This document shows, in pieces, positions 1 through 64,000 of a stretch of 64,000 bases of DNA (within the stretch, counting starts at the first letter, position 1; each line of letters starts with the position of its first letter). Origin of the DNA: a phage. Where the stretch lies: the sequence record PZ445530.1, one strand, 5' to 3'. The notes beneath the pieces were generated by a model. It had not been told where the DNA came from, did no database searches, and was given only the letters and a program-made list of their open reading frames with translations. The position numbers were made by a program, and so were the translations under genes.

Positions 1-1034
1 GGACACTCGTAATGCTTACAGGTCCATCAGGTGGCGGTAAAACAACCGTAGCTAAAAAACTGGAACACTGTATTGCAAGATACCTAATGGACCCGACATG
101 CCCGAAGGCTGATGACTATGAAGAGGATGATCGTCTATGTATGATCCATCTTGAGGAGGACCCAGAGGAAGCAATTAACTCCTTGTATGCAAACCAGTTA
201 GGGTTTGATGTTAAAGAGTTTGTTGAAGATCCTAGCCAGTTTTTAACTGATCAAGAACACGCAGAGATTCACCAATCATGGGCAAAAGCTGGAAAAATCA
301 AAGTGTTCAAACATTTCGGGTCTATTCCGGTGGATGAGTTGATTACCAAGCTTAAGCAAATGGTTTGCCTGTACCATTGCCGTTATATTGTGCTGGATCA
401 CCTGTCCATGGTAATTTCAGGGCTTAATGTTAAGGATGAGCGAAAAGAACTGGACATGGCTATGACTCAGCTGGCTGCGTTTTGTAAGCAGTTTAACGTG
501 TTTATCTTGGTGATCGCTCACCTCAAACGTACAGAGATTGTGCCTCCTAAGGACAAGGATGGTAACCCGTTACCTTTCTGGTATCCTGTGCGAAAAGAGA
601 ATTTGCGAGGATCGGCGGGGCTTGAACAGTTGAGTTGGGTAGTCATAGGTGTCGAGGCCGAAGAAATGGTGGATCGTTCTCGTGGACGTGTCCGTCTGGT
701 AGGTCTTAAAAACCGTCCAGCAAAAACTCTAGGTATTGCTGACACTTTGGTTATGGACCCGCACACAGGTAAGTTCCATGATGCCAGTAATTGGTACTGG
801 GACAAAGAAATGCAAATGTTTACAGACGGAGAAGGTGGGGAGGTTGTTTGGAGACCTCAGGCTATGTTTGAGGATCAGGAGCATGCAGTTGTAGAAACAC
901 CTATGGGCAAGGTTGTGGCTGATAAGGTTGTAACTCCTACTGTTAAGCCTGTTGACACGCAGGAAGACCTCCAGTACGATGATCCGTCCTCTGACCATGT
1001 TCCTGGTTTTGAGGATGATGAAACACCTTTTTAA
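1..1034 (+). CDS. DnaB-family replicative helicase (C-terminal part of primase-helicase), 5' end cut by window edge
   Basis: Reading frame open to position 1; Walker A GPSGGGKT near start; acidic C-terminal tail ending GFEDDETPF. Confidence 0.7.
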   Translation, partial: TLVMLTGPSGGGKTTVAKKLEHCIARYLMDPTCPKADDYEEDDRLCMIHLEEDPEEAINSLYANQLGFDVKEFVEDPSQFLTDQEHAEIHQSWAKAGKIKVFKHFGSIPVDELITKLKQMVCLYHCRYIVLDHLSMVISGLNVKDERKELDMAMTQLAAFCKQFNVFILVIAHLKRTEIVPPKDKDGNPLPFWYPVRKENLRGSAGLEQLSWVVIGVEAEEMVDRSRGRVRLVGLKNRPAKTLGIADTLVMDPHTGKFHDASNWYWDKEMQMFTDGEGGEVVWRPQAMFEDQEHAVVETPMGKVVADKVVTPTVKPVDTQEDLQYDDPSSDHVPGFEDDETPF

Positions 1035-1092
1035 TGTTTAACAAAGAGTGGGAGGGGTAGTACAACCGCCTCCCCTTTAAGGAGAACTGTAT

Positions 1093-3516
1093 ATGAGCAT
1101 GTGGTCGTTCGATTTTGAGTCATCCGGTTTGCTGGAAGACCCAGATCTTTATTATCACTGCGGCCTGTTTAAAGAGCTGAATAAGAACCGTTTTATGCTG
1201 TTCCTTCCTCTGAATGACCGCACACACTACTCCGAGGAGGATATAGAGAAGGCCAAGAACTTTATTCTGGCAAAGAAAACTCTTTATAAGGATTTTGAAG
1301 TTCGCATAGCAGATTTTTCGGAGTTGGAAGGTTGGCTTACAGGAAATTCCGACTGGTCACCAACAGCTTTGAACTGCCATAACTGCTACAGTTATGACTT
1401 TATGCTGATGGAGAGATTATCCGGTATTCATTTTGATATGTTCCGTGATCCTAAATGTATGGGGACTATCAACGACCACCAGGTTAACCTGTTTGATACG
1501 TTGGCGATGAGCCGAATCTTGTGGCCTGATCGCCCTTTACCAAAAGGTTGTCCGGACTCCGTATTCAACCCGGTTACTAAGAAAATGCAGCCTGTTGGTC
1601 CTCACGGCCTTATGGCATGGGGCTACGCCCTTGGTAACCAGAAAGTTCAAATTGATGATTGGCGCGATCTTCCGTTGTGGAAGTATGTGGATCGTGTATT
1701 CGAGGACGTTATCATCCAGGAGCTACTCTGGAAAGAGCTGGTAGCGGAATCAAAAGGTGTATTCTACGGCAAATCTGACATGCAGAACTTTATGTACGAT
1801 CCTGCCAAAGAGAAGCCGAAAGGGTTCAAGAAGATCACCTGGAAGAACGCATTGCGCCGGGGTATGCTGCAACACTTCCTGATGGAGCTGCAGGCCCGTC
1901 AGGGTGTGTATTTTGACATAGATGGAGCTATTGCTTTACGTGACCGTTGCGATGCGTGGATGAAAGAAATCGCTGATCGTGTTGAACCACAACTGCCTTT
2001 AAAAGAGCTGTCAATGTCTCAGCGGCCCAAGTTCCCTGAAAAGCCGTTTAACCAAGATGGGACAATCTCTAATAATGGTTGGAAATGGTTAAAAGATAAG
2101 CTTGGCTATCCTGTGGACATGAGTGCTTTAGAGTTCAAAGCCCCACCTAAGCGAGCATTTACCTCTACAGGAGATGTCAGTAAGATGGGGATAAAATGGT
2201 GTGAAGAGATGGGCTGCAAAGACCACGATAAGATGGCTGATTTCTTGAGAGGCTATATTAAGGGCACCTCCACACCACAACCTTTACCTAAAGAGCTGAT
2301 GGATCAGGCAATAAGCGATCTGCAGCAGAAGCGAATGCCTGACTGCAAGATACCTATGAAAATCAGCAATCAGGACGATATTAAGCGATACCTGATCAGT
2401 GCTGGTTGGCTTCCGACAATGTGGAGAACTAAGGATGTAACTAAAGACAGCAAGAAGAAAGCTTTACCTGATGCAGATGTTGATGCACGAGTATATGCAT
2501 ATATGGACGAGCTTTTGGAGTCAGAGTATTGTGACCTAATTATCAACTTCTGGAACAAAACTGATGCTAAGTTCCAGACAACCGTGCACAAGTTCCGAAG
2601 CTTTCCTAACTCCGAAAGGATTAAAAAGGAAGTATTCGGGAAAATACGTAGAAAAGCTAGGGCACTTATTACTTCTCCGCAACTGAAAGATACGTTTGGA
2701 CACCTGTGTCCGAATCTTGAAAAATTGAACGGAGAGATGGCTAAAGATATCGTCTTATGGTTATCATTGCGAAACCGCAGATCGGTACTTGATCCAATCA
2801 AGGAGGATAAGGTTGACACTGGTCTTCTTAATCACCCACGTTTGAAGATTGACCATAAGCTTCCTGCTAAAAGCTCTGGATTAACAAACACTTCCAGACA
2901 GAAACACAGTATTTGTGCAAACATGCCTAAACCCTCTCCTAAAGTGGTTATGGGTAAAGAGATGCGTAGCTTGTGGGGTGTTCCTCCAGGATACTTTGAG
3001 ATCGGTATCGACGGGTCCAACTTAGAGCAGCTTATCGGGGCTTGGGGTGCCTTTGAGTTCGACAACGGCCTGTATTACGATGTTGTAAGTAACGGAGACG
3101 CACACCAAAACAATGCTGAGGCATATACAAAAGTAGCAGGCAGAGAGGTGTCCCGTAACGACGGTAAACCTATCACGTATGGGGTTATGTACGGGGCACA
3201 AAAAGATAAAGTTGCAGATATGCTGGACATCTCTCCAGAGTTGGGACAAAGGGTAATCGATGCGCTTTGGGATGCCAACCCTGGTCTTAAGGGCCGTAAA
3301 GAGGATCTGGAGAAATTCTGGGAAGCAACGGGTAAGAAGTTTATCTACTCTTTTGATGGTCATGCCATCTGGACCCGATCTAAACACTCTTTACTTAATG
3401 CATACCAACAGAATGGTGGTGCATCGCTGTGTGACTTGGTTGGGATACTTATGCACCACCAAATGGTGAAGCGTGGGTGGTACGATGAAGGTGTTCGTCG
3501 TATTATCTATTACCAT
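1093..3516 (+). CDS. DNA polymerase family A, exon 1 (3'-5' exonuclease + polymerase motifs A/B)
   Basis: Exo I-like FDFESSG at N-terminus; motif A-like GIDGSNLEQL; motif B-like KPITYGVMYG; ORF stops shortly after, before motif C; SD ggagaa upstream. Confidence 0.8.
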
Positions 3517-4358
3517 AAATAACATTGTGGCTTCGTGCAGTGATGCACGTCGAAAACCTCTTTAATTGACGGGAAGGCTAAGTTGACTTTTACACCTAAA
3601 CATGGTAAAAGCTCAATATGCTAATCCGCAGCGAAGACTAAAGGGGTGTAGTTAAAATGGCTAGATCAGTTGAGTATCACGGATATACCGTGTTTGATGA
3701 TGGAACAATACCTTTATCGAAACGTGATCATACAACAATGTTTTGTTTTGATAATGGTCGAGGTTACCTTTGCGTAACCATGTTCATCGAGGGGAAGCAG
3801 TGCACAAAAGGTGTCCACCACTTGGTTGCTGAATGCTTTGTATCAAACCCTGATCCTGAAAGGCTCACATGGGTGAACCATAAGGACGGAAACAAATACA
3901 ACAATGCATACTGGAACCTTGAATGGACCACCCCTGGTGGAAATATCAAACACGCTTATGATAATGACCTCAGAGTAAGGCCAGTCGGTGAGTATAATGC
4001 CAACGCTGTACTGACCGAGGATGAGGTAACGGAGATTTGCGAACTGTTACAAAGTGGTTTACGACAATGCGAGATTAGGGATCTTGGGTATCCTTATGAG
4101 ACGGTCAGAGCCATAAAGCAAAGAAGACAGTGGAAACATATCTCTAAAAACTACACCTGGTAGTAACGTTCAGAGACTATCGAAAGCATAGCGCCAACAT
4201 AAATTGGTGCGAAGAAGCGAGTAGAGTAGACCAGCAAGTGCGGTCGAAATGGGAGGTGCCTTGGTAACAAGGTAGTGAGATAGTCCGATCCATACAGGAA
4301 ACTGTATGGCTGTGCACGTAATGGTGCGGGGTAGCTTAACGACCTACCTGAACTATTG
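3517..4358 (+). mobile_element. Group I self-splicing intron in DNA polymerase gene, carrying HNH homing endonuclease ORF
   Basis: P-like aattgacgggaagg 3564-3577, Q taatccgcagcgaag 3622-3636, R gttcagagacta 4168-4179, S gagatagtcc 4277-4286; exon 1 ends in U (3516), intron ends in G (4358); joining 3516 to 4359 restores pol motif C (YHDEYQ). Confidence 0.7.
3657..4163 (+). CDS. HNH homing endonuclease (intron-encoded)
   Basis: HNH_3-like VNHKDGNKYNNAYWNLEW motif; sits between intron Q and R elements; SD aaagggg upstream. Confidence 0.8.
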   Translation: MARSVEYHGYTVFDDGTIPLSKRDHTTMFCFDNGRGYLCVTMFIEGKQCTKGVHHLVAECFVSNPDPERLTWVNHKDGNKYNNAYWNLEWTTPGGNIKHAYDNDLRVRPVGEYNANAVLTEDEVTEICELLQSGLRQCEIRDLGYPYETVRAIKQRRQWKHISKNYTW

Positions 4359-4712
4359 GATGAGTACCAACTTCAAGTCCCTGACACACCGAAGTATAAG
4401 ACTGTGTACACCTTCGACACAATTGAAGAATTGGAAGCATTTAAGGCAGAGCAGGAGGCCAAACTTCATGTGTTCGACGGTCATAAGTACAAAAAGGCAC
4501 GCAAGGATGAAAACGGAAACGAAGTGGTTGACAGAGACGGAAACACGGTGTACGATCCTATCTTGAACGATGACGGAAAGCTTGAACTTATCTGGAGTCC
4601 TGTGGGCGAAATGGTGGTACATTGCTTCTGGCAAGCTTCTAAAATGATGGGAGTCCCGTTCCAGATCACAGGTGAATACTTGTGTGGTCGTAATTGGGGT
4701 GATTGTCACTAA
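4359..4712 (+). CDS. DNA polymerase family A, exon 2 (motif C and C-terminus)
   Basis: In-frame continuation after intron; begins DEYQLQV giving HDE motif C at splice junction; ends with terminal His as in family A polymerases; no SD or ATG of its own. Confidence 0.65.
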   Translation, partial: DEYQLQVPDTPKYKTVYTFDTIEELEAFKAEQEAKLHVFDGHKYKKARKDENGNEVVDRDGNTVYDPILNDDGKLELIWSPVGEMVVHCFWQASKMMGVPFQITGEYLCGRNWGDCH

Positions 4713-4761
4713 TGTAAACTATCAACACATGGAAGTGTTGTTGAGCAAAGAGGAGACTTTT

Positions 4762-5046
4762 ATGGTAGTAGAACCAACAAAAACATTTACATCTATGACT
4801 ATCCCTGTTATTATGCAGGTGGAGTGTGTTCAGGTATCTCAAGTGTGGCCTGGTACCAAAATCCCAACAGGGCCTGATTTCTTTCAGGTTGGGAAAGTGT
4901 ACAATGTCTGGAAGGCACCAGATTGTTACCCTTTCATCAAAGATGACCGTGGAATGTTGTGGTATCTTGGAAATGATTTGACACTGCACCTTGGGAATGT
5001 TATTATTGCAGTATTCAGACTTAACAAGAAGGAGACCGATCAATGA
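4762..5046 (+). CDS. hypothetical protein
   Basis: ORF with SD agaggag 7 nt before ATG 4762. Confidence 0.45.
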   Translation: MVVEPTKTFTSMTIPVIMQVECVQVSQVWPGTKIPTGPDFFQVGKVYNVWKAPDCYPFIKDDRGMLWYLGNDLTLHLGNVIIAVFRLNKKETDQ

Positions 5047-5270
5047 CAACTTTGGTTAAAGCTACTTTTGTAGAAGAAAAGATGACAGACCTGTCATTCT
5101 TTAAAGAAGGAAAGACCTACGAGGTTTATTACGATAAAAATCGTGCAAACAAGATGATTAAAGACGAGGAAGGGATTGCCTGGTTTATCTCCCATCTGGC
5201 AAACGGTGAGTATCATATCTACGGAACCACCCTGCTTGCCAAGTTTGTAGCTGTAGAAGAGGACCTATGA
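5043..5270 (+). CDS. hypothetical protein
   Basis: ORF with SD aaggag; start overlaps upstream stop (ATGA). Confidence 0.5.
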   Translation: MTTLVKATFVEEKMTDLSFFKEGKTYEVYYDKNRANKMIKDEEGIAWFISHLANGEYHIYGTTLLAKFVAVEEDL

Positions 5271-5461
5271 AAGTAAAGTATCTTGCTGAAGGTATGAGTA
5301 GGTATTTTACCCTTGGCGAAGAATATTGGCCCTTTACAAGCAACGGCGATGTCTACGTGAAAGATAATTTCGGAACGCCGTGGTTTCTGCACTCTAATGG
5401 GCTGGGATACTCCATTTACTGCGGTGCAGTGAACAACACAACTCTTGCAGAGTTCGTTTAG
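5267..5461 (+). CDS. hypothetical protein
   Basis: ORF, start overlaps upstream stop. Confidence 0.45.
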   Translation: MKVKYLAEGMSRYFTLGEEYWPFTSNGDVYVKDNFGTPWFLHSNGLGYSIYCGAVNNTTLAEFV

Positions 5462-5471
5462 AGGAGGTAGG

Positions 5472-5843
5472 ATGTTAGTAAAAGGTACCCACACAGTCAA
5501 ACAACGTATTGAAGTTGAGATTGATGATTGTGAGCTGAAGCATATTCTACGGTCATGTTCTAACGTTTTGCTCCTTAGCATTCTCCAAGAGCGAGCGGAG
5601 AACGAGTTCTTAAATGCATTGGCAGGCCGTCCGGGTGACTTTTGTGTGCGTAAGCGTGGTGACAACAAGTCATGGCTGTGGGAAATCGATGCCGACTGGG
5701 ATTACCACAAAAATGAGGGTATAGATGAGCCTATTCGTGAACTGACGGACAAAGAGATTCAGATGTACAATGAAGTTTGTCATTGGGCAACACGCCAACA
5801 AATTTACCTCGACCCTGTGTGGCTGATTGAAAATAGCCATTGA
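5472..5843 (+). CDS. hypothetical protein
   Basis: ORF; SD gaggagg before ATG 5472. Confidence 0.5.
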   Translation: MLVKGTHTVKQRIEVEIDDCELKHILRSCSNVLLLSILQERAENEFLNALAGRPGDFCVRKRGDNKSWLWEIDADWDYHKNEGIDEPIRELTDKEIQMYNEVCHWATRQQIYLDPVWLIENSH

Positions 5844-5919
5844 CAAGAAGTAAGATTAGATATAAGATGCTTCACACAAACAGATCGGTGATTTTTAAAT
5901 AACTAAGGAGACTGCCAAG

Positions 5920-6174
5920 ATGAAAATTACTTTGAAGCCAGATTGCGTTGCAAATGACCGAGCTTTTAAAGATTGCCCAGTCGGTGCAATTTATGAAGCA
6001 GAGTTTTGTGAGAACCCTCTGGTAAAAGCCCTTCTGGAAGAAGGGGCCCCTTTATCACAAGAAGAGATCGATGAGCTGGAAAACTCAGCACAGTGCCTTA
6101 CCTTTAAAGATGATGAAGGAGACTCTGTCTGGTGCACTGTTAATGAAGTCGTTTTTGTAAAACCTGAACATTAA
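5920..6174 (+). CDS. hypothetical protein (member of tandem paralog pair)
   Basis: SD aaggag; shares KPD..D.AF.DC and KDD.GD.V.CT motifs with next gene. Confidence 0.5.
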   Translation: MKITLKPDCVANDRAFKDCPVGAIYEAEFCENPLVKALLEEGAPLSQEEIDELENSAQCLTFKDDEGDSVWCTVNEVVFVKPEH

Positions 6175-6237
6175 TACTTGACAACAGCGATAGGACCTAG
6201 TACAATGGTCCTATCAAAACGAAAGGGGACCACAACA

Positions 6238-6510
6238 ATGACCAAACAATACCAACGAATTAAAGCCAAGGTTAAGCCAGACTATCTGGAGAAGGACTCT
6301 GCTTTTCGGGACTGCACAGCTGACAAAGTTTATACAGGGGCCGTCCTGTTGAACGATGAACTTGAAGTAGATATTCTGGGTAAAGAGGCAACTATTAAGG
6401 ACGACCAAGGCGATTATGTTTGCTGCACCACACGTGAGCTAGAAATCTTAGAATACTTCGGTGAAATCTTCACCTCTCTTGATGATTACTTAGATGATGA
6501 GGAAGCGTGA
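6238..6510 (+). CDS. hypothetical protein (paralog of 5920..6174)
   Basis: SD aaagggg before ATG 6238; motif similarity to upstream gene. Confidence 0.5.
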   Translation: MTKQYQRIKAKVKPDYLEKDSAFRDCTADKVYTGAVLLNDELEVDILGKEATIKDDQGDYVCCTTRELEILEYFGEIFTSLDDYLDDEEA

Positions 6511-6899
6511 TGAAAAATATTTGGGATATCGATATCTTTGAAGCCTCTAAGCTTGATGGTGCTGATGGAGTGATTATGGTGTCTGATGGCAAGGCAACAC
6601 TAACTTCCGGAGATATCATCTATGCCTTGGACGAGCTGGCGCTTCTGAAATCTACCGGTAACACTTTGGAGGAGCGTCTTCAAGGATTCGCTTTCAAAGA
6701 AGGTACAAATACAGCCATGATGTGCACCACACGGACAGTTCAGGTTGGTAACGGTGTCTATATGATTATTGCTGTGTGTCCTAAATTCAGCAACGTCAAC
6801 AAAGATGATGCTGACGCGGTCAACGATGTGGTTGTTCTCTTCGTGGGTGACGCTATGGCAGATCTGATGAATGCAGGAGAAGCAGCAAATGAAGACTGA
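6507..6899 (+). CDS. hypothetical protein
   Basis: ORF, overlapping start/stop with neighbours. Confidence 0.5.
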   Translation: MMKNIWDIDIFEASKLDGADGVIMVSDGKATLTSGDIIYALDELALLKSTGNTLEERLQGFAFKEGTNTAMMCTTRTVQVGNGVYMIIAVCPKFSNVNKDDADAVNDVVVLFVGDAMADLMNAGEAANED

Positions 6900-7191
6900 A
6901 AACATCACCCCAGCAGGGTTCTTAAAAGTATACCGTGAACTGCTATATACTACAGAGGACAGTGTTCTAGAGTATCCAGAATATCTTTTGCTGTATAAGT
7001 ATCTGCAGGAGGCTGGTGAAAATCTGCCAGTTAGTGCAGAAGGTGGTCCAAACTGGATATACAGTGCATGGAGAAAGGTTGACATTCTCCCAGACCCAGG
7101 TAAAGATATGGTAGTTTGGCAGCTTATCAACAACATCGGGATTCCAATCTTTGATGAAGCTGTTAAAATCTATTTTGAACTTGACGATTAA
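6889..7191 (+). CDS. hypothetical protein
   Basis: ORF; SD gcaggag before ATG 6889. Confidence 0.45.
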   Translation: MKTENITPAGFLKVYRELLYTTEDSVLEYPEYLLLYKYLQEAGENLPVSAEGGPNWIYSAWRKVDILPDPGKDMVVWQLINNIGIPIFDEAVKIYFELDD

Positions 7192-7208
7192 TATCAGGAG
7201 ACCTTAAG

Positions 7209-7454
7209 ATGACTGAAGCAGTTGCTCGCGCAGGACAGAAAGTACGTTGTGTTGAAGTAGGTTTTGGTGGCAAAGGGTGTCAAAACTTGACTCAAGGTAA
7301 GGAATACGCTGTTATCTCTGGGGGCGGAGACGAAAGTATTGTGTTCGAGGGCCACATCCTGGATGCTGAAAACTTTGAAATCTTTGACGACGATGGGGAC
7401 CCGATCACCTGCCTGCTGGACGGGAATTGGGGAACTTTCGAAGTGATTGGCTAA
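7209..7454 (+). CDS. hypothetical protein
   Basis: ORF; SD caggag upstream. Confidence 0.5.
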   Translation: MTEAVARAGQKVRCVEVGFGGKGCQNLTQGKEYAVISGGGDESIVFEGHILDAENFEIFDDDGDPITCLLDGNWGTFEVIG

Positions 7455-7537
7455 CAAATACCTATTGTAATTTACAGAAGGGGATGCTAAAATAGTGTCT
7501 CCTTCTATGTTGTTCAAATAAAATCGGAGATTCCATA

Positions 7538-7906
7538 ATGGAACAAATGAACGATCAAGCGTCGGTTGCGATGAACGAGCAAGAACAACCTCAAGAATTT
7601 TTCTTAGGGTTAAGTAAAGATCAAGTGTCTCTTCTGCTAGTGCTTTCTTCTTTCATGGGAAGACTTCAGGAGCTCACACAACAGCCAGAGGCTGAACAAT
7701 TATTTCAGGCTCTGCGTGAAGAAGAAAAATATCGTCGTTTGGACTATGCCTTGGGTTGGGTAGCTCAACAACGAGATATGCTGATGGCCCTCTCTGGGAC
7801 CACAAGTTTTGCAATGGGCCTGTTGGCTCAAGTTCAGGACAAATTAATTCAAGCAGGGTTTGCACACACGGCAAACACTAACGAAGAACAAGGAGACAAA
7901 GAATGA
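7538..7906 (+). CDS. hypothetical protein
   Basis: ORF; SD cggag upstream. Confidence 0.5.
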   Translation: MEQMNDQASVAMNEQEQPQEFFLGLSKDQVSLLLVLSSFMGRLQELTQQPEAEQLFQALREEEKYRRLDYALGWVAQQRDMLMALSGTTSFAMGLLAQVQDKLIQAGFAHTANTNEEQGDKE

Positions 7907-9129
7907 GCGTTATTCAACAATTCGCTAACCCGATGAATCCGCGTGAAACTGTTTTACTGGCTCACGGCATGATTAAACGCGTCAGCATCAAGCCTATCAA
8001 AGGTGCTGATCCTACAACAGGTATTAAAACCACTGTGTGGCAAGGTAAGAAAATTGAGTCCAGCCACACCATCTCTTTACTGATTTCTGAACTGGATTCC
8101 TCTGATAACCTACTTCAAGGTGGTGAAGAAGTTTGGATCAGTATGGGCGATAAGCTGCTTAAACCGGGTCATCAAGACTCTGTCTCTGTTAAAATTGATG
8201 ACAAGTGGGAAACCGTAACGCCAGGATGGATCGTAAATATCCCTTTGAAGGCAAACGAGCATAACGGTAAGACCTACTACAAAGGCTCACTGGCTAAGAT
8301 GGTTAAGCTGGGTGCAGGAGAGGCTCCAGCAGCGACTCAGCAGCAAAAACAGCAACAAGGTGCACAATCACAAGGCCAGAAGCAGAAACCTCAGCAGAAT
8401 GCCAATCAGGACGTTTTACGCATCTATGGTGATGTGACTCAGATTGTTGGCAACGTGGTTACTGTTAATGACCACAAGATTGGCGAAGGTGCTATGGTTG
8501 TAACTGATGAGCAGCTTAAAGACCTGGTGGTAGGTGGTCGTGTTGCAGCCATTGTTGACAAAGACACCGGAAACATTATCAGTGGTTTCAAAGCCTATCC
8601 TCCTAAGGCAGAGAACGGTACTCAAGGCTCTGGTGGCAAGCGTAAATCCTCTTACGACCCTATCGGTGTGGAAACGGGGCATAGCATCAATGCGTTGCAA
8701 ATCATCCTGGATCGCGGGTTTAAGGTAGACGACCCACTAGGAGTGGCTAAAACACTACACGTAGTCACTATTGAGCTTAAGAAAGAGTATGCTCAAGCCA
8801 CCAACCGAACTGAAGATGAAGTAGGTGCCAGTGTCGGTAATGCGGTGTTGAACGCTTGTCGCCGTATTGACAAGAAAACGAAAGTTGATGATTTTGCAGC
8901 GGCAATTACTGCAGAAGCAAAAGATGTCTTGACTAATCTGGCTGAGCCGTTGTACGATTGGATCAAGAACGGTGCTGGGTCAACTGACCATCAAGAACCT
9001 CAGGCTGCCAAACAGGAAGCAGCTCCACAGCAAAACACTGTAGACGCTCCTCCTGTAAATGATGGGGAAGATGACCCGATGGATCAGAATCCAGCACAGT
9101 ACGCCTTTGATGATGACATCCCATTCTAA
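7903..9129 (+). CDS. Putative single-stranded DNA-binding protein
   Basis: C-terminus AFDDDIPF matches the acidic SSB tip (DDDIPF); Gln-rich linker; position in replication block. Confidence 0.5.
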   Translation: MSVIQQFANPMNPRETVLLAHGMIKRVSIKPIKGADPTTGIKTTVWQGKKIESSHTISLLISELDSSDNLLQGGEEVWISMGDKLLKPGHQDSVSVKIDDKWETVTPGWIVNIPLKANEHNGKTYYKGSLAKMVKLGAGEAPAATQQQKQQQGAQSQGQKQKPQQNANQDVLRIYGDVTQIVGNVVTVNDHKIGEGAMVVTDEQLKDLVVGGRVAAIVDKDTGNIISGFKAYPPKAENGTQGSGGKRKSSYDPIGVETGHSINALQIILDRGFKVDDPLGVAKTLHVVTIELKKEYAQATNRTEDEVGASVGNAVLNACRRIDKKTKVDDFAAAITAEAKDVLTNLAEPLYDWIKNGAGSTDHQEPQAAKQEAAPQQNTVDAPPVNDGEDDPMDQNPAQYAFDDDIPF

Positions 9130-9145
9130 CATCTAGTTAACATAG

Positions 9146-9173
9146 CCCTGCCCGAAAGGGTGGGGCATTTTTG
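9146..9173 (+). terminator. Intrinsic terminator-like hairpin
   Basis: ccctgccc-gaaa-gggtgggg stem with GNRA loop followed by cattttt. Confidence 0.5.
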
Positions 9174-9191
9174 TATAAGGAGATCTGAAAA

Positions 9192-9967: not shown

Positions 9968-10393
9968 ATGATCTATGAAATGCCAAAACTGATTCGTGAC
10001 GATGCCCAAAACGCTAACACCATTATTATGGGCAAACGCATGGATATTATTTGTCATAAAGATTTCTGGGAAGGGAGTTACTTCACAGAGTATTTTGGTA
10101 AACTGGACAATGGTCTGCTGATCCAGTTCTACACCGATGCGGAAAACAATATCTGCTGGGAGTTCGAAACTGAAGATATCCATAAACTTTTCACCTTCCT
10201 AGGTATTAAGGTTGAGGCCAAGTTCGAAGAAGGTGAGTGCGACGATTGTGGATTCTACGAGGTAACAGATTTCTATCTCCCAAGTGGTGAGAACCTTTAC
10301 TATGAAAGCCACTTCGGTAACTCCAATATGCCACAGTGCTGGACTGAGTTTTTTGAAATTGCGGAAGAGGAGCTGGCATACCGTGATTATTGA
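9968..10393 (+). CDS. hypothetical protein
   Basis: ORF. Confidence 0.5.
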   Translation: MIYEMPKLIRDDAQNANTIIMGKRMDIICHKDFWEGSYFTEYFGKLDNGLLIQFYTDAENNICWEFETEDIHKLFTFLGIKVEAKFEEGECDDCGFYEVTDFYLPSGENLYYESHFGNSNMPQCWTEFFEIAEEELAYRDY

Positions 10394-10841
10394 TACTGTA
10401 GAGGGAGATTTAATCTCCCTTTTTAAGAGCGGTGCTGGTCACCTGATCCACGGTTGTAACTGCTTCCACACAATGGGCAAGGGGATAGCAAAACAGATTT
10501 CCCGTGAGTTCCCTCAAGCATTGGCAGCTGACAAAGAGACTAGATATGGTTGCCTAAGTAAACTGGGTGCGTTCTCCCGATGGGAGCACTTATCTCCGAG
10601 AGGTATTGTCTACGGAATCAATCTGTATACTCAGTTCTACCCAGGACCTAATGCTGAATATTTCTCAATTCTGAAAGGCTTTGAGCTAGTCAATGAGGTA
10701 TTCAGTAGATCGACTTTACCATTCTACATCCCTAAGATCGGGTGCGGCATAGGCGGTTTGAAGTGGGAGCACGTAGAGGACGTTATTAACCTTGCCACTT
10801 TTGATATGGATATTATCGTGGTAGACTACAAAAAGTGTTGA
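10383..10841 (+). CDS. Putative macro-domain (ADP-ribose binding/processing) protein
   Basis: Macro-like pattern VEGDLISL..HLIHGCNCFHTMGKGIAKQI and IPKIGCGIGGL; probable GTG start after SD gaggag. Confidence 0.45.
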   Translation: MIIDTVEGDLISLFKSGAGHLIHGCNCFHTMGKGIAKQISREFPQALAADKETRYGCLSKLGAFSRWEHLSPRGIVYGINLYTQFYPGPNAEYFSILKGFELVNEVFSRSTLPFYIPKIGCGIGGLKWEHVEDVINLATFDMDIIVVDYKKC

Positions 10842-40072: not shown

Positions 40073-41161
40073 TTAAAACTCCCAAATTTCTTCTTCAGCG
40101 TCGTTAACAGTTGTGTTGACGCGGTAGTCAGTGTTCGACATTTCTTGGTTCGCCGTCTGTTGCAATGAAGGTTTCATCCACACCTGCATAAACGGTAGCG
40201 GGTCCTTTGTTGGCGGCACAAAGTCTTTGTCGATGTCGTAGTAATCATAAATCGGTGAGCAGTTATAGTCAACCCACTCTTTAAGCAACGGTGAGTTAAG
40301 ACCTATAATCGCTCTTCCTTCGCTGAAAATATAGTCACTCCAGCCGTACTCTTTGGTTCGTACTTCATCAAGAATCTCTTTTAACTCCCCCTTTATCTCA
40401 AGGAAGCTTTTCTCCCATGCGGGATCATTAAGCAAGATATCAATGATGGCAAAATCACCTTTCGAATGTAGCATTTCGTCAAGCATGATTTTTTGAACAA
40501 GCTGCGCCACCTGAACAAAGATACCCTGTTCAGCTACTGCGAAAGTGCATGCAAAACTTGCAATAAACTCAATACTTTCCAGAGCTAAAAGTGCAAAAAG
40601 CGCTCTAAGAATGCATTTCCGCACAACATCTTCTTCAACACTAGAAGGATCCAGTCGGTATTTTGCACCAATAACCTCAAGCTCTTGCATGTATTTGACA
40701 ATAACTCCGGATCTGCTCAGAACGTTTTGGTTTTCCTGAATCTCTTCTATAATCTCACGGGCATTAGGGAGGCATTGTCTAACAATCTCTGAGTAAGTTA
40801 GTGCGTGAAGAACTTCAATCTCTGACTGTTTCATCAATAGAGTGAAAAGCTCACTATTAGTGATGAATGGTGAAAAGAGGCAGATGATCGATCTTGCCGC
40901 AACGCTATCAGCCTCCCATTGCCACATCAAGGTCTGCACCATCACGTCATAAGTTGACTTTGAGCATGTTACAAAATCTGAAATAGATTGCGACAAATCC
41001 ACTTCATCCTCTGCCCAATCTTGCTCTTTTTGTTTTTTGTATAGTTCAAACAGTTGTGGATATTTTTTGTTGATAGAGTCGTACATACCCATTTGCTGTC
41101 CCAGAAACAGCGGATAGTCACCAGTTTTATGAGCGGTGTTCTCAGCATTAAATACAGCCAT
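40073..41161 (-). CDS. nrdB: Ribonucleotide reductase class Ia small subunit
   Basis: N-terminus resembles E. coli NrdB; start moved to MAVFNAEN with SD agaggtag; next to nrdA. Confidence 0.85.
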   Translation of the reverse strand: MAVFNAENTAHKTGDYPLFLGQQMGMYDSINKKYPQLFELYKKQKEQDWAEDEVDLSQSISDFVTCSKSTYDVMVQTLMWQWEADSVAARSIICLFSPFITNSELFTLLMKQSEIEVLHALTYSEIVRQCLPNAREIIEEIQENQNVLSRSGVIVKYMQELEVIGAKYRLDPSSVEEDVVRKCILRALFALLALESIEFIASFACTFAVAEQGIFVQVAQLVQKIMLDEMLHSKGDFAIIDILLNDPAWEKSFLEIKGELKEILDEVRTKEYGWSDYIFSEGRAIIGLNSPLLKEWVDYNCSPIYDYYDIDKDFVPPTKDPLPFMQVWMKPSLQQTANQEMSNTDYRVNTTVNDAEEEIWEF

Positions 41162-41199
41162 TATTCTACCTCTAAAATGGGGCCGAAGCCCCTTTAAAA

Positions 41200-43515
41200 T
41201 TATAGTGCACAGCTTTCGCAATACGGATCTTCAACTGAACTATCTGCAATCAAAGGATAGTTCTTTCTGGTTTCATCTTCAGCCTGTTTCTTGGCATGAA
41301 GTTCCTCTGCCAAGGAGTCACCAGCACCAACCCTAGAGTTTAAATAATACCATGTCTTCATCCCGAATTTAGTGGCACGGATAAGGTACCCTAACTGCTC
41401 CTTCATTGAAATTTTACCATCTTTCAACTTGGTGTAGTCTATGTATAAATCCGCGCTGATTGCCTGACCTGTGAATTTTTGAATCACGGCATACATATCG
41501 ATCATGTCGTTAGTATCAACGTCCCAAGCCGAGGTGTAATACTCTTTCAACTCATCATAGTCAGGAACGATAAACAGCACCTGCCCTTGTGGCGACTTTT
41601 TAAAGATAATGTGCTCACGGACAGGATAAACCCCGTTAGTGGTGTTTGTTGCCAGCGAAGAGCTTTCATTAGGCATATATGCTTCAAGAACGCTATTACG
41701 TAGCCCACCATTCTCAATGATTTCTTTACGTAACCCTTCCCAATCCTGTTTAAGAGAAGGATCTTTCACCACGCTATCGACCTCTTTGTTATAGGTGTCG
41801 ATTGGTAACCAACCTTCTGGATATTTTGTTTTATGCATCCACTCGCAGACACCACGCTCTTTTGCCAACCGTAAACTTGCCTTATGCAAGCTGTAGCTGT
41901 GAAGTTCTGCAAGATCGTGAACGAGCTGTTTACTTTCAGGAGACCCGTAAGTAACCTTGTGGCTGGCAATAAAATGTGCAACATTGGTAAGGCCAACCCC
42001 GATGGATCTGCGTTTTTTAACTGTGCTTTCCATATTTTCATACGGATATGTCATGATTTCCATAACATTGTCAATCATAAGCACCGTGTAGTATGCAACA
42101 TCCTCATACTCCTCTGGAGTAACCCTTCCAGCTACAAGAGATGACAGGAAGCACAATGCAACCTCTCCATCATCAGCATCGTACTTGAAGATATTACGCA
42201 TATCTGAATAGCCTTTTGTCGGGAGGGCTATTTCTGCACACAGGTTACTTGAATAGATCACATCTTTAAAAGGTGTATGTCTATTCATCTCATCTGTCCA
42301 GTATACATACAGCCTTCCCACCTCAGTACGCTGCGTGATCAGTTCAACAGCAAGATCTCTGGCTCGGATCCATGTTTTAGGAATACTGTCATCTTTAGCA
42401 ATACGCTCAACCTCTGCATCGAACTCCTCCATAGACATGGTGAAGATACCCTCATGCAGTTGAGGAGCGTGCTTATAAGAAACAAGCATCCAATCTAAAT
42501 TCTTAGCCACACGGTTGATAAACGACCTATTAATACCGATGGAGTAGTCCATGGTGTTGATTCTTTTTGAAGCAACAGTCATAGGGTTTCTCAAACGGAT
42601 TAGCTCATCAATCTGCGGGTCCAGTGCAAGGAATGATACTGTTGCAGAACCGCCACGTGATTGTTGTCTGTTCTCCTTAACACCAGCATCAATACCTCGA
42701 TAATATGGAATCTTACCCATATGTTTAATAGTGTTACCACGAACACCATCGCCTGCAGATCTTGAGGATAAGTAGTAGCCGATACCTGCTTGGTTAACCG
42801 TCATTGTGTACGCAACTTCACGTGCCACACCAATAGATTTTGCTGTATCGTCAGCTTTTATTACACAACAAGATGCATACCCTGTCTTACCTGTGCGCAG
42901 CCCGTTTAAGTACGGTGTCGGGGCATTGATCTTTAAGTCGGACAGATAAGTGTATAATTTTACAACATCGTTGATACGACGTTCTTTCGGCATATTCTTC
43001 ATGACAGCCATTGCTATCCCCATAAACATCATCTGGGGAGATTCAAACAAGGTGTCTTTAAGAGTATCCTTGATCCCGTATTTGTCGCGAAACTGTTTAA
43101 GGACTGCATAGCCATAACCGAGATCTTTACTGTGGTCAATAACAGCGTCTAAAGTGTTTAGCTCGGTAAAGCTATAACCCATATCCTCCCAATAACCTTT
43201 CTCAACCATGTCATTGTAAAATGATGGTAAGGAAGGGATCTTTGTAAACCCTCCAAAAGCCTCTTTATAGATCTGACCAATAAGAACACGACCAGCCATA
43301 CGGGAATGTGCTTCGTCTTTACGGCTAACACAAGAGTCTATAATAGCTTGGTTAACTTCTTTGGTTGTACATCCATCATACAACCGCTTGTAGGCATCCA
43401 GTGCAATATGTGACCAATTGCCGTTACCATCGTCACCGAAAATAGCTGCCTTATTTAAACGTTCTGGATCGAATGCTACTTCACATCCGTTGCTTTTAAT
43501 TACCTTGGTGATCAA
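41200..43515 (-). CDS. nrdA: Ribonucleotide reductase class Ia large subunit
   Basis: N-terminal ATP-cone; C-terminal CESCAL redox cysteines; about 770 aa. Confidence 0.9.
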   Translation of the reverse strand: MITKVIKSNGCEVAFDPERLNKAAIFGDDGNGNWSHIALDAYKRLYDGCTTKEVNQAIIDSCVSRKDEAHSRMAGRVLIGQIYKEAFGGFTKIPSLPSFYNDMVEKGYWEDMGYSFTELNTLDAVIDHSKDLGYGYAVLKQFRDKYGIKDTLKDTLFESPQMMFMGIAMAVMKNMPKERRINDVVKLYTYLSDLKINAPTPYLNGLRTGKTGYASCCVIKADDTAKSIGVAREVAYTMTVNQAGIGYYLSSRSAGDGVRGNTIKHMGKIPYYRGIDAGVKENRQQSRGGSATVSFLALDPQIDELIRLRNPMTVASKRINTMDYSIGINRSFINRVAKNLDWMLVSYKHAPQLHEGIFTMSMEEFDAEVERIAKDDSIPKTWIRARDLAVELITQRTEVGRLYVYWTDEMNRHTPFKDVIYSSNLCAEIALPTKGYSDMRNIFKYDADDGEVALCFLSSLVAGRVTPEEYEDVAYYTVLMIDNVMEIMTYPYENMESTVKKRRSIGVGLTNVAHFIASHKVTYGSPESKQLVHDLAELHSYSLHKASLRLAKERGVCEWMHKTKYPEGWLPIDTYNKEVDSVVKDPSLKQDWEGLRKEIIENGGLRNSVLEAYMPNESSSLATNTTNGVYPVREHIIFKKSPQGQVLFIVPDYDELKEYYTSAWDVDTNDMIDMYAVIQKFTGQAISADLYIDYTKLKDGKISMKEQLGYLIRATKFGMKTWYYLNSRVGAGDSLAEELHAKKQAEDETRKNYPLIADSSVEDPYCESCAL

Positions 43516-54694: not shown

Positions 54695-55978
54695 TCATTC
54701 CAGCACCTCCCAAGTGTCTGGGTTAACATTTCGGACGCAGATACCGACAGGGAATTGGTAGTTGTTGTCTTCTGTCCTTGCTTGATATTTGAAGGTGACA
54801 AACTTGCCGATCATTTCCTGCATCCTGTCATAGCTACGCTCCTCGTGCGTGCCTTTCATCTTCATTTTAACAACAACACCTTCCTTGTCAACACAGATAA
54901 GAACACCTTCATCATTCTTATCTTTCTCAACGTCAATAACTTTCACCTCTGCGTCGTTGAACTTTTTCCATTTCAATGCTTCAGATGTTCGCTGACCATA
55001 CTCATATTTACCACAGAAGTTACGCATAATGGTACCTTCATATCCTTCAGACATAAATATACCAACAGACTCTTCGCACCGATCAACCGTATATGCAAGC
55101 TCTGCATCAACAACCTTAATATGATCAAGCATCAAAGAAGTAATAGCACCGTTTGCCTCCATAAGATCCTTACAGCGACCAGACTCTGTTTCAGGATCCC
55201 ACCACACCTTATCGCTAGGAATATCGAAAATATGATACTCTAAGTCGTAGCTGCAGTACCCTCCGTAACGCAAATCATCACGAACAGGCTCAACATCAAC
55301 AGGAATGTCCACCTTGTTGAAGTTTTTGTATGTTGCTAAACCTGCTTTAATCGCAGCCTGACGGCGTTTTTTATCTGCCTTGTAGTCTTTATCGATCTCG
55401 GCCTGAATTTCTTCCTGTGTGCGCCACCGTTTAGCAAGAGACACTATTTTCTGCAAAGGAAGACCATGAATGTATAGTTCCCCATCAAGTTGTTTAATCC
55501 CAGTGGTAGAATGGAAAGAACGAAGTTGCTCTAAAAGCTTTCCTTGAATAGGGTAGGACTTATTACCACGGGAAATAAATTTAGGCTCACCATTTTGGAA
55601 AACAACAAGCAGACGAAGGCCATCTAACTTACGCAAGATCCAGCAAGGTAATTTAAGTGCCTTGCCACGCTTCAGGTAGTCATGCACCAGCATGGGTAAA
55701 AGATCAACACCCTGCTCGCAATCTTCCATGTTTTCAACATACCCCAGACGGACTTGTTTTTCCCACTTGCTGATAGCCTCAAGCTCGGCCTGTTGCTCAG
55801 CTGTAGTCTCGTTGGCACGACCTACGTTCTTAGGTGTGCATACCGTCTCTTTGTACTGCAGTTTACCATCAAGCTTGCCAAACTCTACGATAACCTTATC
55901 ACCATCCGTGAATACTTTCCACTGTTGGTAGCTGCCATCTTTATTCAGTGCGTACAGTGTTGTTTTGATCTGATGCAT
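54695..55978 (-). CDS. ATP-dependent DNA ligase
   Basis: Nucleotidyltransferase motif I KLDGLR (KxDGxR); size about 430 aa. Confidence 0.75.
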   Translation of the reverse strand: MHQIKTTLYALNKDGSYQQWKVFTDGDKVIVEFGKLDGKLQYKETVCTPKNVGRANETTAEQQAELEAISKWEKQVRLGYVENMEDCEQGVDLLPMLVHDYLKRGKALKLPCWILRKLDGLRLLVVFQNGEPKFISRGNKSYPIQGKLLEQLRSFHSTTGIKQLDGELYIHGLPLQKIVSLAKRWRTQEEIQAEIDKDYKADKKRRQAAIKAGLATYKNFNKVDIPVDVEPVRDDLRYGGYCSYDLEYHIFDIPSDKVWWDPETESGRCKDLMEANGAITSLMLDHIKVVDAELAYTVDRCEESVGIFMSEGYEGTIMRNFCGKYEYGQRTSEALKWKKFNDAEVKVIDVEKDKNDEGVLICVDKEGVVVKMKMKGTHEERSYDRMQEMIGKFVTFKYQARTEDNNYQFPVGICVRNVNPDTWEVLE

Positions 55979-61305: not shown

Positions 61306-61380
61306 GCCCTGTTAGCTTAGTGGATAAAGCAGCGGCCTTCTAAGCCGTTGACACTGGTTCGAGTCCAGTACGGGGTGCCA
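61306..61380 (+). tRNA. tRNA-Arg (anticodon TCT)
   Basis: Cloverleaf by hand: acceptor gccctgt/acggggt, T-loop ttcgagt, anticodon loop cttctaa, encoded CCA. Confidence 0.6.
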
Positions 61381-61384
61381 AATT

Positions 61385-61471
61385 GGGGAGTTATCCCGTA
61401 GAGGTAGCGGTGTAGACTGTAAATCTATTGTCATTACGACTCGGGTGGTTCGACTCCACCACTTCCCACCA
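61385..61471 (+). tRNA. tRNA-Tyr (anticodon GTA), class II long variable arm
   Basis: Acceptor ggggagt/acttccc, anticodon loop ctgtaaa, long variable arm, T-loop ttcgact, CCA. Confidence 0.55.
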
Positions 61472-61585
61472 AATTTATAGTTTTAAATGCATAAATCATA
61501 CAGATAATGGCATTGATATTTATCGTCGTTTATACTAGTCACTAACTGCTCGAAAATCAGTGTCATTATCAGTATTGTTTATAAA

Positions 61586-61676
61586 TGAGGGTAGGGAGCA
61601 ATGGTGCTCAAGCGGTCTTGAAAACCGTCCCGTTGAGGATGACTCGATGATGGTTCGATTCCATTACCCTCAGCCA
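61586..61676 (+). tRNA. tRNA-Ser (anticodon TGA), class II
   Basis: Acceptor tgagggt/accctca, anticodon loop cttgaaa, long variable arm, T-loop ttcgatt, CCA. Confidence 0.5.
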
Positions 61677-61774
61677 TATTGTTGACCTTGTAATTAAGCG
61701 AAAGCCGGAAGCAGAACCGGATTATCAAATGTTACAGTCGTCATCGCCGACTAGCAACATGGTCAACATACTGA

Positions 61775-61871
61775 GCTAGGTAAGCCCTTTGGCAAGGGCG
61801 AGGATTTTTAATCCTGAAAATAGACGAGGTAGTCGTTGAATACATAGGTGGTTCGATTCCATCACCTAGCA
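61775..61871 (+). ncRNA. Aberrant tRNA-like element (97 nt)
   Basis: Acceptor gctaggt/acctagc and T-arm ggtgg-ttcgatt-ccatc are canonical, but anticodon arm folds as aggat-tttta-atcct (5-nt loop) with about 30-nt extra arm. Confidence 0.3.
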
Positions 61872-61879
61872 CCTTTTTT

Positions 61880-61955
61880 GCTGATGTAGCACAATTGGTA
61901 GTGCAATTGATTTGTAATCAATAGGTTGCAGGTTCAAGTCCTGCCATCAGCACCA
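61880..61955 (+). tRNA. tRNA-Thr (anticodon TGT)
   Basis: Acceptor gctgatg/catcagc, anticodon stem attga/tcaat with loop tttgtaa, T-loop ttcaagt, CCA. Confidence 0.6.
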
Positions 61956-61956
61956 T

Positions 61957-62031
61957 GGCCCTGTAGCTGGAAGGTTCAAGCAAGCGACTCATAATCGCCA
62001 GACGGTGGTTCAATTCCACCCAGGGCCACCA
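61957..62031 (+). tRNA. tRNA-Met or Ile2 (anticodon CAT)
   Basis: Acceptor ggccctg/cagggcc, anticodon loop ctcataa, T-loop ttcaatt, CCA. Confidence 0.6.
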
Positions 62032-62043
62032 AATAATAAATAC

Positions 62044-62119
62044 TCCGCGTAGCTCAGCTTGGTAGAGCGCCTGATTTGGGATCAGGAGGTCGAGTGTTCG
62101 AATCACTCCGTGGAGACCA
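62044..62119 (+). tRNA. tRNA-Pro (anticodon TGG)
   Basis: Acceptor ctccgcg/cgtggag, anticodon stem cctga/tcagg with loop tttggga, T-loop ttcgaat, CCA. Confidence 0.6.
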
Positions 62120-62540: not shown

Positions 62541-62939
62541 ATGATTTCAGTTTTAACATGGCTGAGTAGGTATAGAGGGATCATAAAAGGTTTAGTTTTT
62601 GCAGCTGCGCTAGGTACAGCTTATCTTGGAGCCGTATATTGGTTTAACTTTAAGCTTAATGAAGCCTACCAAGAGGGTGTGTCAGCAACAGAGTTAAAGT
62701 GGGAACGGATCCTTGATCAGCAACAAAAGCAGGCCGACAAAATTAAAATGGGCCACGCAGAGGAGGTTAAAAACCTTGAAAAATCCCTTTCTGATCTGCA
62801 GGATAAATTAAATATGGCTGAGAAGGCAGGTAAAGAAAAGCAGATTATCTACCTCCAGTCACCTGAAGGCAAGAAGTCAACACTCCCTGATCAGCTTATA
62901 GATATTTATAATGAGAGTATCAATCAGGAGGATCGATGA
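62541..62939 (+). CDS. i-spanin (Rz-like)
   Basis: N-terminal TM segment IIKGLVFAAALGTAYLGAVYWF then coiled-coil-like periplasmic domain; adjacent to lipoprotein gene. Confidence 0.6.
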   Translation: MISVLTWLSRYRGIIKGLVFAAALGTAYLGAVYWFNFKLNEAYQEGVSATELKWERILDQQQKQADKIKMGHAEEVKNLEKSLSDLQDKLNMAEKAGKEKQIIYLQSPEGKKSTLPDQLIDIYNESINQEDR

Positions 62940-63223
62940 GAGTTGCTACACTGGTTATTGTGTGCTTGTTATTATGTGGGTGTGCAACCAACGTTGAGAG
63001 AGAATACAAGATTGACCCTCCGGATGTAGGAAGGTTGATTGTTAAACCCCCGGAAGGTGCCATGAAACCACCTGCTAAAGCTATGCCTTTGAAGAAAGGT
63101 GCGCCAGATGCAGTGAATTCTGGCATTATGAGGGATAATAATCTGTCTTGTAGCAATGATAGAGCTAAATTGATCATTTTGCAAGACTATATTAGAACAC
63201 TGTTTCCAAAGGAGAGCGGTTAA
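62936..63223 (+). CDS. o-spanin (Rz1-like lipoprotein)
   Basis: Lipoprotein signal with LLLCGCA lipobox-like cysteines; Pro-rich mature part; start overlaps i-spanin stop. Confidence 0.6.
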   Translation: MRVATLVIVCLLLCGCATNVEREYKIDPPDVGRLIVKPPEGAMKPPAKAMPLKKGAPDAVNSGIMRDNNLSCSNDRAKLIILQDYIRTLFPKESG

Positions 63224-63648
63224 TGTCTAAGATTTACGGACCGTGTTCTGAAAAGCAGAAGATGATCCTCGAAAACGATGCAGATATTTTGGTAATCGGC
63301 GGTGCCGCAGGGTCTGGCAAGTCGTTCCTCTTGCAATTGATGCCACTTAAAATTATTGATGACCCCCACAGCTCTGTGGTTATGTTCCGAAGAACAACCC
63401 CGCAGTTGGAAGGTGAGGGTGGACTATGGCCTAAAGCGGTAGCTATTTATAGTGATCTGCCTGAAAACATTAAGCCAAAGTTCAGAGAGAAGGATCATAA
63501 GTTCATTTTTCCACGGTTTGATCCGAACACTGGCAAGTGGGATAGAAGCAAAAAGGGAGCTGTTGTAAAATACTGCCACATGGAGTATGTACAAGATAAG
63601 CTTAACCATCAAGGGCTTGAGTACACCATGGTTTGCTTCGATGAGGGT
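63223..63648 (+). CDS. Terminase large subunit, exon 1 (ATPase N-terminus)
   Basis: Walker A VIGGAAGSGKS; Walker B MVCFDEG at exon end; stop codon lies inside group I intron. Confidence 0.7.
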
Positions 63649-64000
63649 TAATTTGTAGCTCTCGTAAAACCTCCCTAATTGCGGGGAAATCTTTACTATT
63701 AATACCACCAACCTGTCATGGTAACATGATAGAGGCTTCGAAGAGAGATCGAAGGTATGGTAACAGTGTGTTAATTTAGATAATCCGCAGCGAAGCATCC
63801 GAGAGGATGAACGTTCAACGACTAGTCGAAAGACGTAGAATCAAGCGATTCGAAACGGGAGGATAAGCGGTTGTTGTCGCTTATAAGATATAGTCTGGTC
63901 TGCATGGAGACATGCAGCTGCCTGAAAATGGCGGGGCAAGACTAGCGACCTTGCCCGAACATAAACGACACAATTCGAATGGGAGCAGATAGACTATCTG
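63649..64000 (+). mobile_element. Group I intron interrupting terminase large subunit (3' end beyond window)
   Basis: P aattgcggggaaa 63677-63689, Q taatccgcagcgaag 63781-63795 (identical 15-mer to pol intron), R gttcaacgacta 63813-63824, S aagatatagtc 63885-63895; no long ORF inside. Confidence 0.65.

Follow-up and report, generated by a model that had tools for sequence, protein, structure and literature searches.

Acidic tails ending in Pro-Phe on the helicase and on a candidate single-stranded DNA-binding protein of an rV5-like phage

Introduction

Two proteins encoded near the start of a phage DNA stretch of 64,000 nucleotides (sequence record PZ445530.1; this whole stretch is called the window hereafter), a helicase and a protein of 408 amino acids (aa), end in acidic residues followed by a terminal Phe, and the question raised by this locus is whether these tails mark a replisome core of the phage T7 kind in a much larger genome, as the initial annotation had suggested. 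The window belongs to an rV5-like Vequintavirus with a genome of about 137 kb; over its first 9.2 kb it shares 96-98% identity with more than 100 coliphages of the rV5 kind. In this study, we consider it fairly probable that the 408-aa protein is the SSB (single-stranded DNA-binding protein) of the phage and that both tips serve as peptides that dock on a shared partner, which would be the phage polymerase, host partners of SSB, or both.

In T7, a front basic patch of the polymerase gp5 (K587, K589, R590 and R591) anchors the tail of gp2.5, and a DTDF peptide mimicking the tail of gp4 is bound to gp5 in PDB entry 6P7E (PMC12339929). The C-terminal Phe of gp2.5 is reportedly essential. The gp2.5-like/Enc34 ORF6 proteins (DUF2815, PF10991, PHROG 112) are phage SSBs that combine a fold of the oligonucleotide/oligosaccharide-binding (OB) type with an acidic C-terminal tail, which partner replisomes of a gp4-like helicase and Pol A (PMC5686142). 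In Escherichia coli, the C-terminal peptide of SSB (SSB-Ct), DDDIPF or MDFDDDIPF, recruits at least 17 partner proteins (PMC5872125, PMC10018359). Both the principle and the type of replisome are known, and the T7-like polymerase and primase-helicase of rV5-type phages have already been annotated; what is new here is the assignment of an SSB family, the host-type tip on both proteins, and natural variants in which the tip is capped.

Results

The helicase gene, at 1..1034 (+), encodes the C-terminal part of a gp4-like replicative helicase, a putative primase-helicase (Pfam AAA_25 and DnaB_C; PHROG 239, 'DNA primase/helicase'). Its open reading frame (ORF; 12..1034, +) holds the C-terminal 340 aa of a protein that measures 692 aa in relatives, being cut by the window start with the N-terminus outside. 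It ends in DHVPGFEDDETPF before the stop codon at 1032-1034, and its last 72 residues or so form an acidic extension (816..1031, +; 18 Asp/Glu against 4 Lys/Arg) that closes with the tip GFEDDETPF (1005-1031, +). The 408-aa protein (7903..9129, +), a member of PHROG 4477, a family of unknown function, ends in NPAQYAFDDDIPF, the last residues being AQYAFDDDIPF and the tip AFDDDIPF lying at 9103-9126 (+) directly before the stop codon at 9127-9129. The two ends noticed in the initial annotation were thus confirmed in the ORFs, and a census of all ORFs of at least 50 aa, 350 in the window and 663 in the complete genome of a relative assembled from loci, found an acidic stretch with a Pro-Phe end in these two proteins only. 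Other acidic and aromatic ends in the census were those of an NrdB-like ORF (EEEIWEF) and of one 141-aa ORF. The former, the ribonucleotide reductase beta-subunit ORF at 40073-41221 (-), ends in NDAEEEIWEF, which we take to be the classical R2 tail that binds R1, and hence to be unrelated to the replisome tails.

Both ends are conserved in relatives, that of the helicase less constantly. An alignment of 24 homologs of the 408-aa protein, down to 30% identity, gave the consensus tip DFDDDIPF with an invariant terminal Pro-Phe. A profile search of 1.8 billion representatives yielded 249 clusters at 50% identity, of which the best 150 were inspected; 111 of these cluster representatives end in PF, and most of the others end in PW, in DF or in PF plus one residue, or are fragments. 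Close relatives of the helicase end in an acidic residue, any residue and PF, and T7-like relatives end in DEFDNVDF. That two unrelated acidic C-termini came to end in Pro-Phe by chance and share no function is hardly credible: many proteins have an acidic C-terminus, and distant relatives of the helicase do not keep its tail, but only two of the 663 ORFs carry such an end, both of them replisome proteins, and the tip is strongly conserved in the 408-aa family and among close relatives of the helicase.

Judged by its residues, the tip of the 408-aa protein is of the bacterial SSB-Ct type and not of the T7 type ending in DTDF. Seven of its last eight residues match E. coli SSB-Ct, in family members the identity with E. 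coli SSB covers up to 13 residues in a row at the C-terminus (NEPPMDFDDDIPF), and some members give matches to PHROG families of canonical SSBs over their final 25-45 residues. Since the tip matches that of the host SSB, host SSB-binding proteins may be engaged too. It could even be proposed that the tips functionally copy the host SSB-Ct with host proteins (for example Pol III chi, PriA, RecQ, Exo I, RNase HI, DnaG) as their main partners in place of the phage polymerase, these partners being recruited to phage forks or drawn off host SSB; this proposal overlaps with the reading preferred here and is compatible with it. Such a hijack of the host interactome is favoured by these matches, by the docking of at least 17 host proteins on SSB-Ct and by the lack of the T7 docking loop in the phage polymerase (see Discussion), but it is opposed by the tight synteny of the gene with the phage's own helicase and polymerase and by the presence of ligase, exonuclease and polymerase genes in the phage itself. 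In addition, gp2.5-like SSBs of T7-type replisomes carry PF tails too, so a PF tip alone does not imply host partners. We regard the hijack as a real but less likely alternative.

The 408-aa protein matches the PHROG 4477 profile over its full length (E = 2.9e-173), its residues 1-408 being aligned with profile positions 1-393. It is annotated as a hypothetical protein in nearly all of the 252 phage records with a homolog, and in two recent GenBank records (Klebsiella phages) homologs are labelled as binding single-stranded DNA (ssDNA). AlphaFold, run with the 24-sequence alignment, gave three confident domains and a disordered tail. The N-terminal domain, residues 1-139 (7903..8319, +; isoelectric point 9.1), is a predicted beta/OB domain that is structurally similar to SSB in the model, in line with the OB fold that the initial annotation had called for. 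It is followed by a disordered Gln-rich linker, residues 140-168 (8320..8406, +), recognised by its composition and by a predicted local distance difference test score below 50; by a small beta domain, residues 169-236 (8407..8610, +), which is missing from the short forms of 260-300 aa in the family; by a four-helix domain, residues 251-358 (8653..8976, +), the most conserved part of the family; and by the disordered acidic tail, residues 359-408 (8977..9126, +), with a net charge of -11. The linker varies in length among relatives of 95-99% identity (forms of 404 and 395 aa; insertions or deletions in P0002 and P0005), which suggests slippage in a low-complexity spacer.

A Pfam search of the 408-aa protein gave no match at E no higher than 0.01, a phmmer search of the PDB gave noise only (E >= 0.28), and among viral structures most of the Foldseek matches were homologs without a known role, those to SSB, DUF2815 (E = 0.011) and LEF-3 being weak. 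No characterisation of the protein was found in the literature on Vequintavirinae. Its earlier description as a relative of gp2.5 was not borne out, as it has no Pfam or PHROG 112 (gp2.5-like) match and only eight tail residues align when its family is compared with gp2.5-like proteins by hhalign, a profile-profile comparison in which the gp2.5 side, built from only three gp2.5-like sequences, is thin and so leaves strictly some room for remote homology. A phmmer search with E. coli SSB found no match among the phage ORFs, and no canonical SSB is listed in a complete, curated genome from a close relative; the 408-aa protein is the only SSB candidate of the phage.

The position of the gene points in the same direction. 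Three divergent contigs encode family members of 30-36% identity that retain DDDIPF, and in each the gene follows a pair made of a gp4-like helicase and Pol A, at 0.3-1.4 kb downstream. The gene order is the same in the window, where the distance from the polymerase to the 408-aa gene downstream is 3.2 kb. Several further phages in which a gp4-like helicase occurs with Pol A carry either a gp2.5-like SSB (PHROG 112) or a member of PHROG 2544, a third, unannotated family, and these neighbours again have acidic, Phe-terminated tails, some of them ending in PF. Given unrelated SSB bodies with shared acidic-Phe tails, the module appears to keep the tail and to exchange the SSB body.

The helicase and the polymerase themselves resemble those of T7. 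In the PDB, a full-length relative of the helicase matches T7 gp4 best (E = 4e-16) and Twinkle next, which agrees with its description as gp4-like. The full-length relative has no Pfam match to Toprim, and the T7 TOPRIM region gives a weak, non-significant alignment with it; the name primase/helicase is that given by PHROG 239 and GenBank. The polymerase gene is split by a group I intron. Its exon 1 (1093..3516, +; 808 codons), which encodes a T7 gp5-like family A DNA polymerase, ends in IIYYH, and an FDFES motif at its N-terminus resembles, by sequence, the exonuclease motif of the DnaQ type. The intron (3517..4358, +; Rfam RF00028, E = 3.4e-7, 39 bits, below the gathering score) is inserted at motif C and contains an HNH homing-endonuclease ORF (3657-4163, +), and exon 2 (4359..4712, +; 117 codons plus stop) matches positions 185-295 of PHROG 8888 'DNA polymerase'. 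The unspliced ORF stops after IIYYHK and a later ORF starts with MDEYQLQV; splicing restores YYH/DEYQ, which corresponds to T7 VHDEIQ in an alignment running across the junction (iyyHDEyql against awvHDEiqv). The spliced protein of 925 aa has T7 gp5 as its sole PDB match (E = 7e-16), which upholds the initial assignment to gp5-like family A polymerases, and scores slightly below the Pfam cutoff for DNA_pol_A (31.8 against 34.3 bits). Extra residues are found in the alignment at the region corresponding to the thioredoxin-binding domain of T7. One BASEL phage record joins the two exons in its annotation, many GenBank records treat the exons as separate genes, and rV5 itself apparently lacks the polymerase intron ORF.

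Elsewhere in the window, an ATP-dependent ligase was located at 54695-55978, and the i- and o-spanin genes at 62541-63223 are followed by TerL from 63223, so that the ligase and the lysis/terminase order named in the initial annotation were both recovered. A 5'-3' exonuclease had also been listed; it appears in the annotation of the relative only and has no Pfam match here. EndoVII and a DnaQ-like exonuclease are encoded in addition to the ligase according to the relative's annotation and searches. The TerL gene, whose exon 1 begins at 63223 and encodes a Walker A motif, contains an ORF-less group I intron at 63639-63917 (RF00028, 84 bits, above the gathering score), and the TerL interruption of phage WalterGehring contains a homing endonuclease. 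At least five tRNA genes lie at 61306-62116, just upstream of the spanin and terminase genes, with two more weak tRNA-like matches at 61385-61467 and 61587-61671. Downstream of the SSB-like gene, the early region also encodes a Macro-domain (ADP-ribose-binding) protein, at 10284-10841. Among public records similar to this region, 16-20 are named 'Campylobacter phage' (MG065635, MG065677, MG065644 and others; host C. jejuni) and are 96-99% identical to E. coli rV5-like phages; the C. jejuni host label on them looks doubtful.

Discussion

The proposal of a T7-like replisome core holds for the helicase, the polymerase and the tails, and is not supported for the SSB family, the type of tip and the patch loop of gp5. 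Like T7, the source phage has a gp4-like helicase and a gp5-like family A polymerase, a disordered acidic tail with a C-terminal Phe on both the helicase and the SSB-like protein, and genes for a ligase and an exonuclease. Unlike T7, it is a myovirus (by taxonomy, with an annotated tail sheath protein) with a genome of about 137 kb, its tips end in PF, the bacterial type, instead of DF, its polymerase measures 925 aa instead of 704, is split by a group I intron and lacks the basic-patch loop, and the body of its SSB-like protein is unrelated to gp2.5 at the level of sequence and profile and has two extra domains. The 408-aa protein resembles E. coli SSB in its predicted OB fold, its disordered low-complexity linker and an acidic tip of the same sequence, and in combining a basic DNA-binding domain with an acidic tail. 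It differs from E. coli SSB in having no Pfam SSB (PF00436) or phmmer match and in having an extra beta domain, along with a conserved domain of four helices, inserted between its OB fold and its tail; in the source phage, moreover, the helicase too bears an SSB-Ct-like tip. Some metagenomic members of the gp2.5-like/Enc34 ORF6 SSBs also end in PF, whereas the 408-aa family is separate from them, with only eight tail residues in alignment.

Whereas the tails with their conservation, the gp4-like and gp5-like identities, the predicted OB fold, the synteny and the lack of any other SSB were observed here, we infer the binding of ssDNA, the identity of the partner and the geometry of docking, as follows. 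The N-terminal OB fold of the 408-aa protein would bind ssDNA, and its conserved helical domain would serve perhaps for self-association or for partner binding. Its long disordered acidic tail would present at its end D-F-D-D-D-I-P-F, the peptide used by bacterial SSBs for partner docking, and the gp4-like helicase would present F-E-D-D-E-T-P-F at the end of a similar disordered extension. The terminal Phe and carboxylate of both tips may sit in a hydrophobic pocket with a basic rim on a shared partner, which by analogy with T7 would most likely be the phage gp5-like polymerase, contacted otherwise than via the T7 patch. The helicase would then hold the polymerase at the fork, and the polymerase would be handed along the SSB-coated template.

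Several observations weigh against this arrangement. The 12-residue basic-patch loop of T7 gp5 is absent from the polymerase, where only KK aligns with R590/R591, and the alignment with the T7 segment shows the same loop to be absent from three of four polymerases from other tail-bearing replisomes. As the T7 docking site is not conserved, any contact between polymerase and tail must use another surface. Apart from the tail, the 408-aa protein has no sequence-level match to any SSB family, and some members of its family have an N-terminal domain that is not basic. Furthermore, some divergent helicase partners of PHROG 4477 end in NYG or GSY with the tip of the SSB kept; as the helicase tail is thus not conserved in divergent relatives, the arrangement of two tails is lineage-specific. 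A strict co-variation of helicase and SSB tails across lineages was also considered and rejected, since VDF pairs with APF and IPF with IDF, and the helicase tail is lost in divergent relatives.

A further point on the same side comes from the capped tails. In rV5 itself (ORF 214, 423 aa in its capped form) and in about 31 close records out of about 116, the ORF of the SSB-like protein extends 15 residues past IPF; the capped tail of rV5 reads DDIPFAPVGLQYGKSRIHAL, the residues after DDIPF in extended forms are APVGLQYGKSRIHAL, and the extension of about 15 residues follows the pattern AP[IV]GLQY....I[YH].L. An explanation by read-through into an intron was rejected, as the extension represents the 5' end of a homing-endonuclease cassette of the EndoVII type (PHROG 1035), which has entered the SSB-like gene at its stop codon and replaces it (L015 10726-10772, rV5 ORF 214/213; L014 2893-2938), the ribosome-binding site and ATG of the endonuclease gene lying inside the extension in another frame. 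Distant family members and one helicase fragment (P0068) carry the same extension. In phage WalterGehring, the stop codon is intact and an endonuclease of the PHROG 1035 family lies just behind it, and the endonuclease after its helicase belongs to a different family. In the window, no such cassette follows the 408-aa gene, so Phe is the true C-terminus in the source phage; a hairpin with a T-run resembling an intrinsic terminator lies directly 3' of the gene (9145-9176, +). The viability of rV5-type phages with a capped tip indicates that these phages can do without a free Phe at the end of the SSB-like protein, unless the extension is trimmed. The terminal carboxylate of SSB-Ct is part of what partners recognise. 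Together with the capping, this argues against strict essentiality of the tip, or else the intact helicase tail or host SSB can compensate.

The tolerated capping also bears on a different role for the 408-aa protein, namely that of an OB-fold accessory factor (a recombination mediator, an annealing protein or a helicase loader, built like RecO or RPA32/Stn1), with host SSB coating the phage ssDNA. The conserved helical domain, which is not found in classical SSBs, and the presence of the same tip on host SSB fit this role as well. An SSB-Ct tip after a disordered linker, however, is a hallmark of SSBs, partners such as RecO binding the tip without carrying one, and the 408-aa protein carries precisely such a tip after such a linker. 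Moreover, no other SSB is encoded, according to the annotation of the relative genome and to phmmer, and gp2.5-like SSBs hold the equivalent position in related replisomes. We consider the accessory role improbable.

The preferred reading, a phage SSB sharing a docking partner with the helicase, might be taken further. PHROG 4477 could represent a new SSB architecture, made of an OB fold, a four-helix domain and an exact copy of host SSB-Ct, with the rV5-like helicase having acquired the same tip and the replisome plugging into, or competing for, the network of host SSB partners; we put this forward as a speculation whose chances are low. If it were true, the endonuclease cassette that caps the tip in rV5 would be a natural loss-of-terminus variant.

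The present analysis gives a probable function, that of a replicative SSB, to a gene of about 250 sequenced phages that nearly all of them label as 'hypothetical', including phages of the BASEL reference collection and O157-targeting ones that have been proposed for biocontrol. It suggests that the T7 logic of an acidic tail ending in Phe persists while unrelated OB-fold SSB bodies are swapped, and the match of the tip to the host SSB peptide raises the question whether rV5-like phages use host SSB partners. Near-identical phages with capped and uncapped tips provide a natural test of the importance of the free C-terminal Phe.

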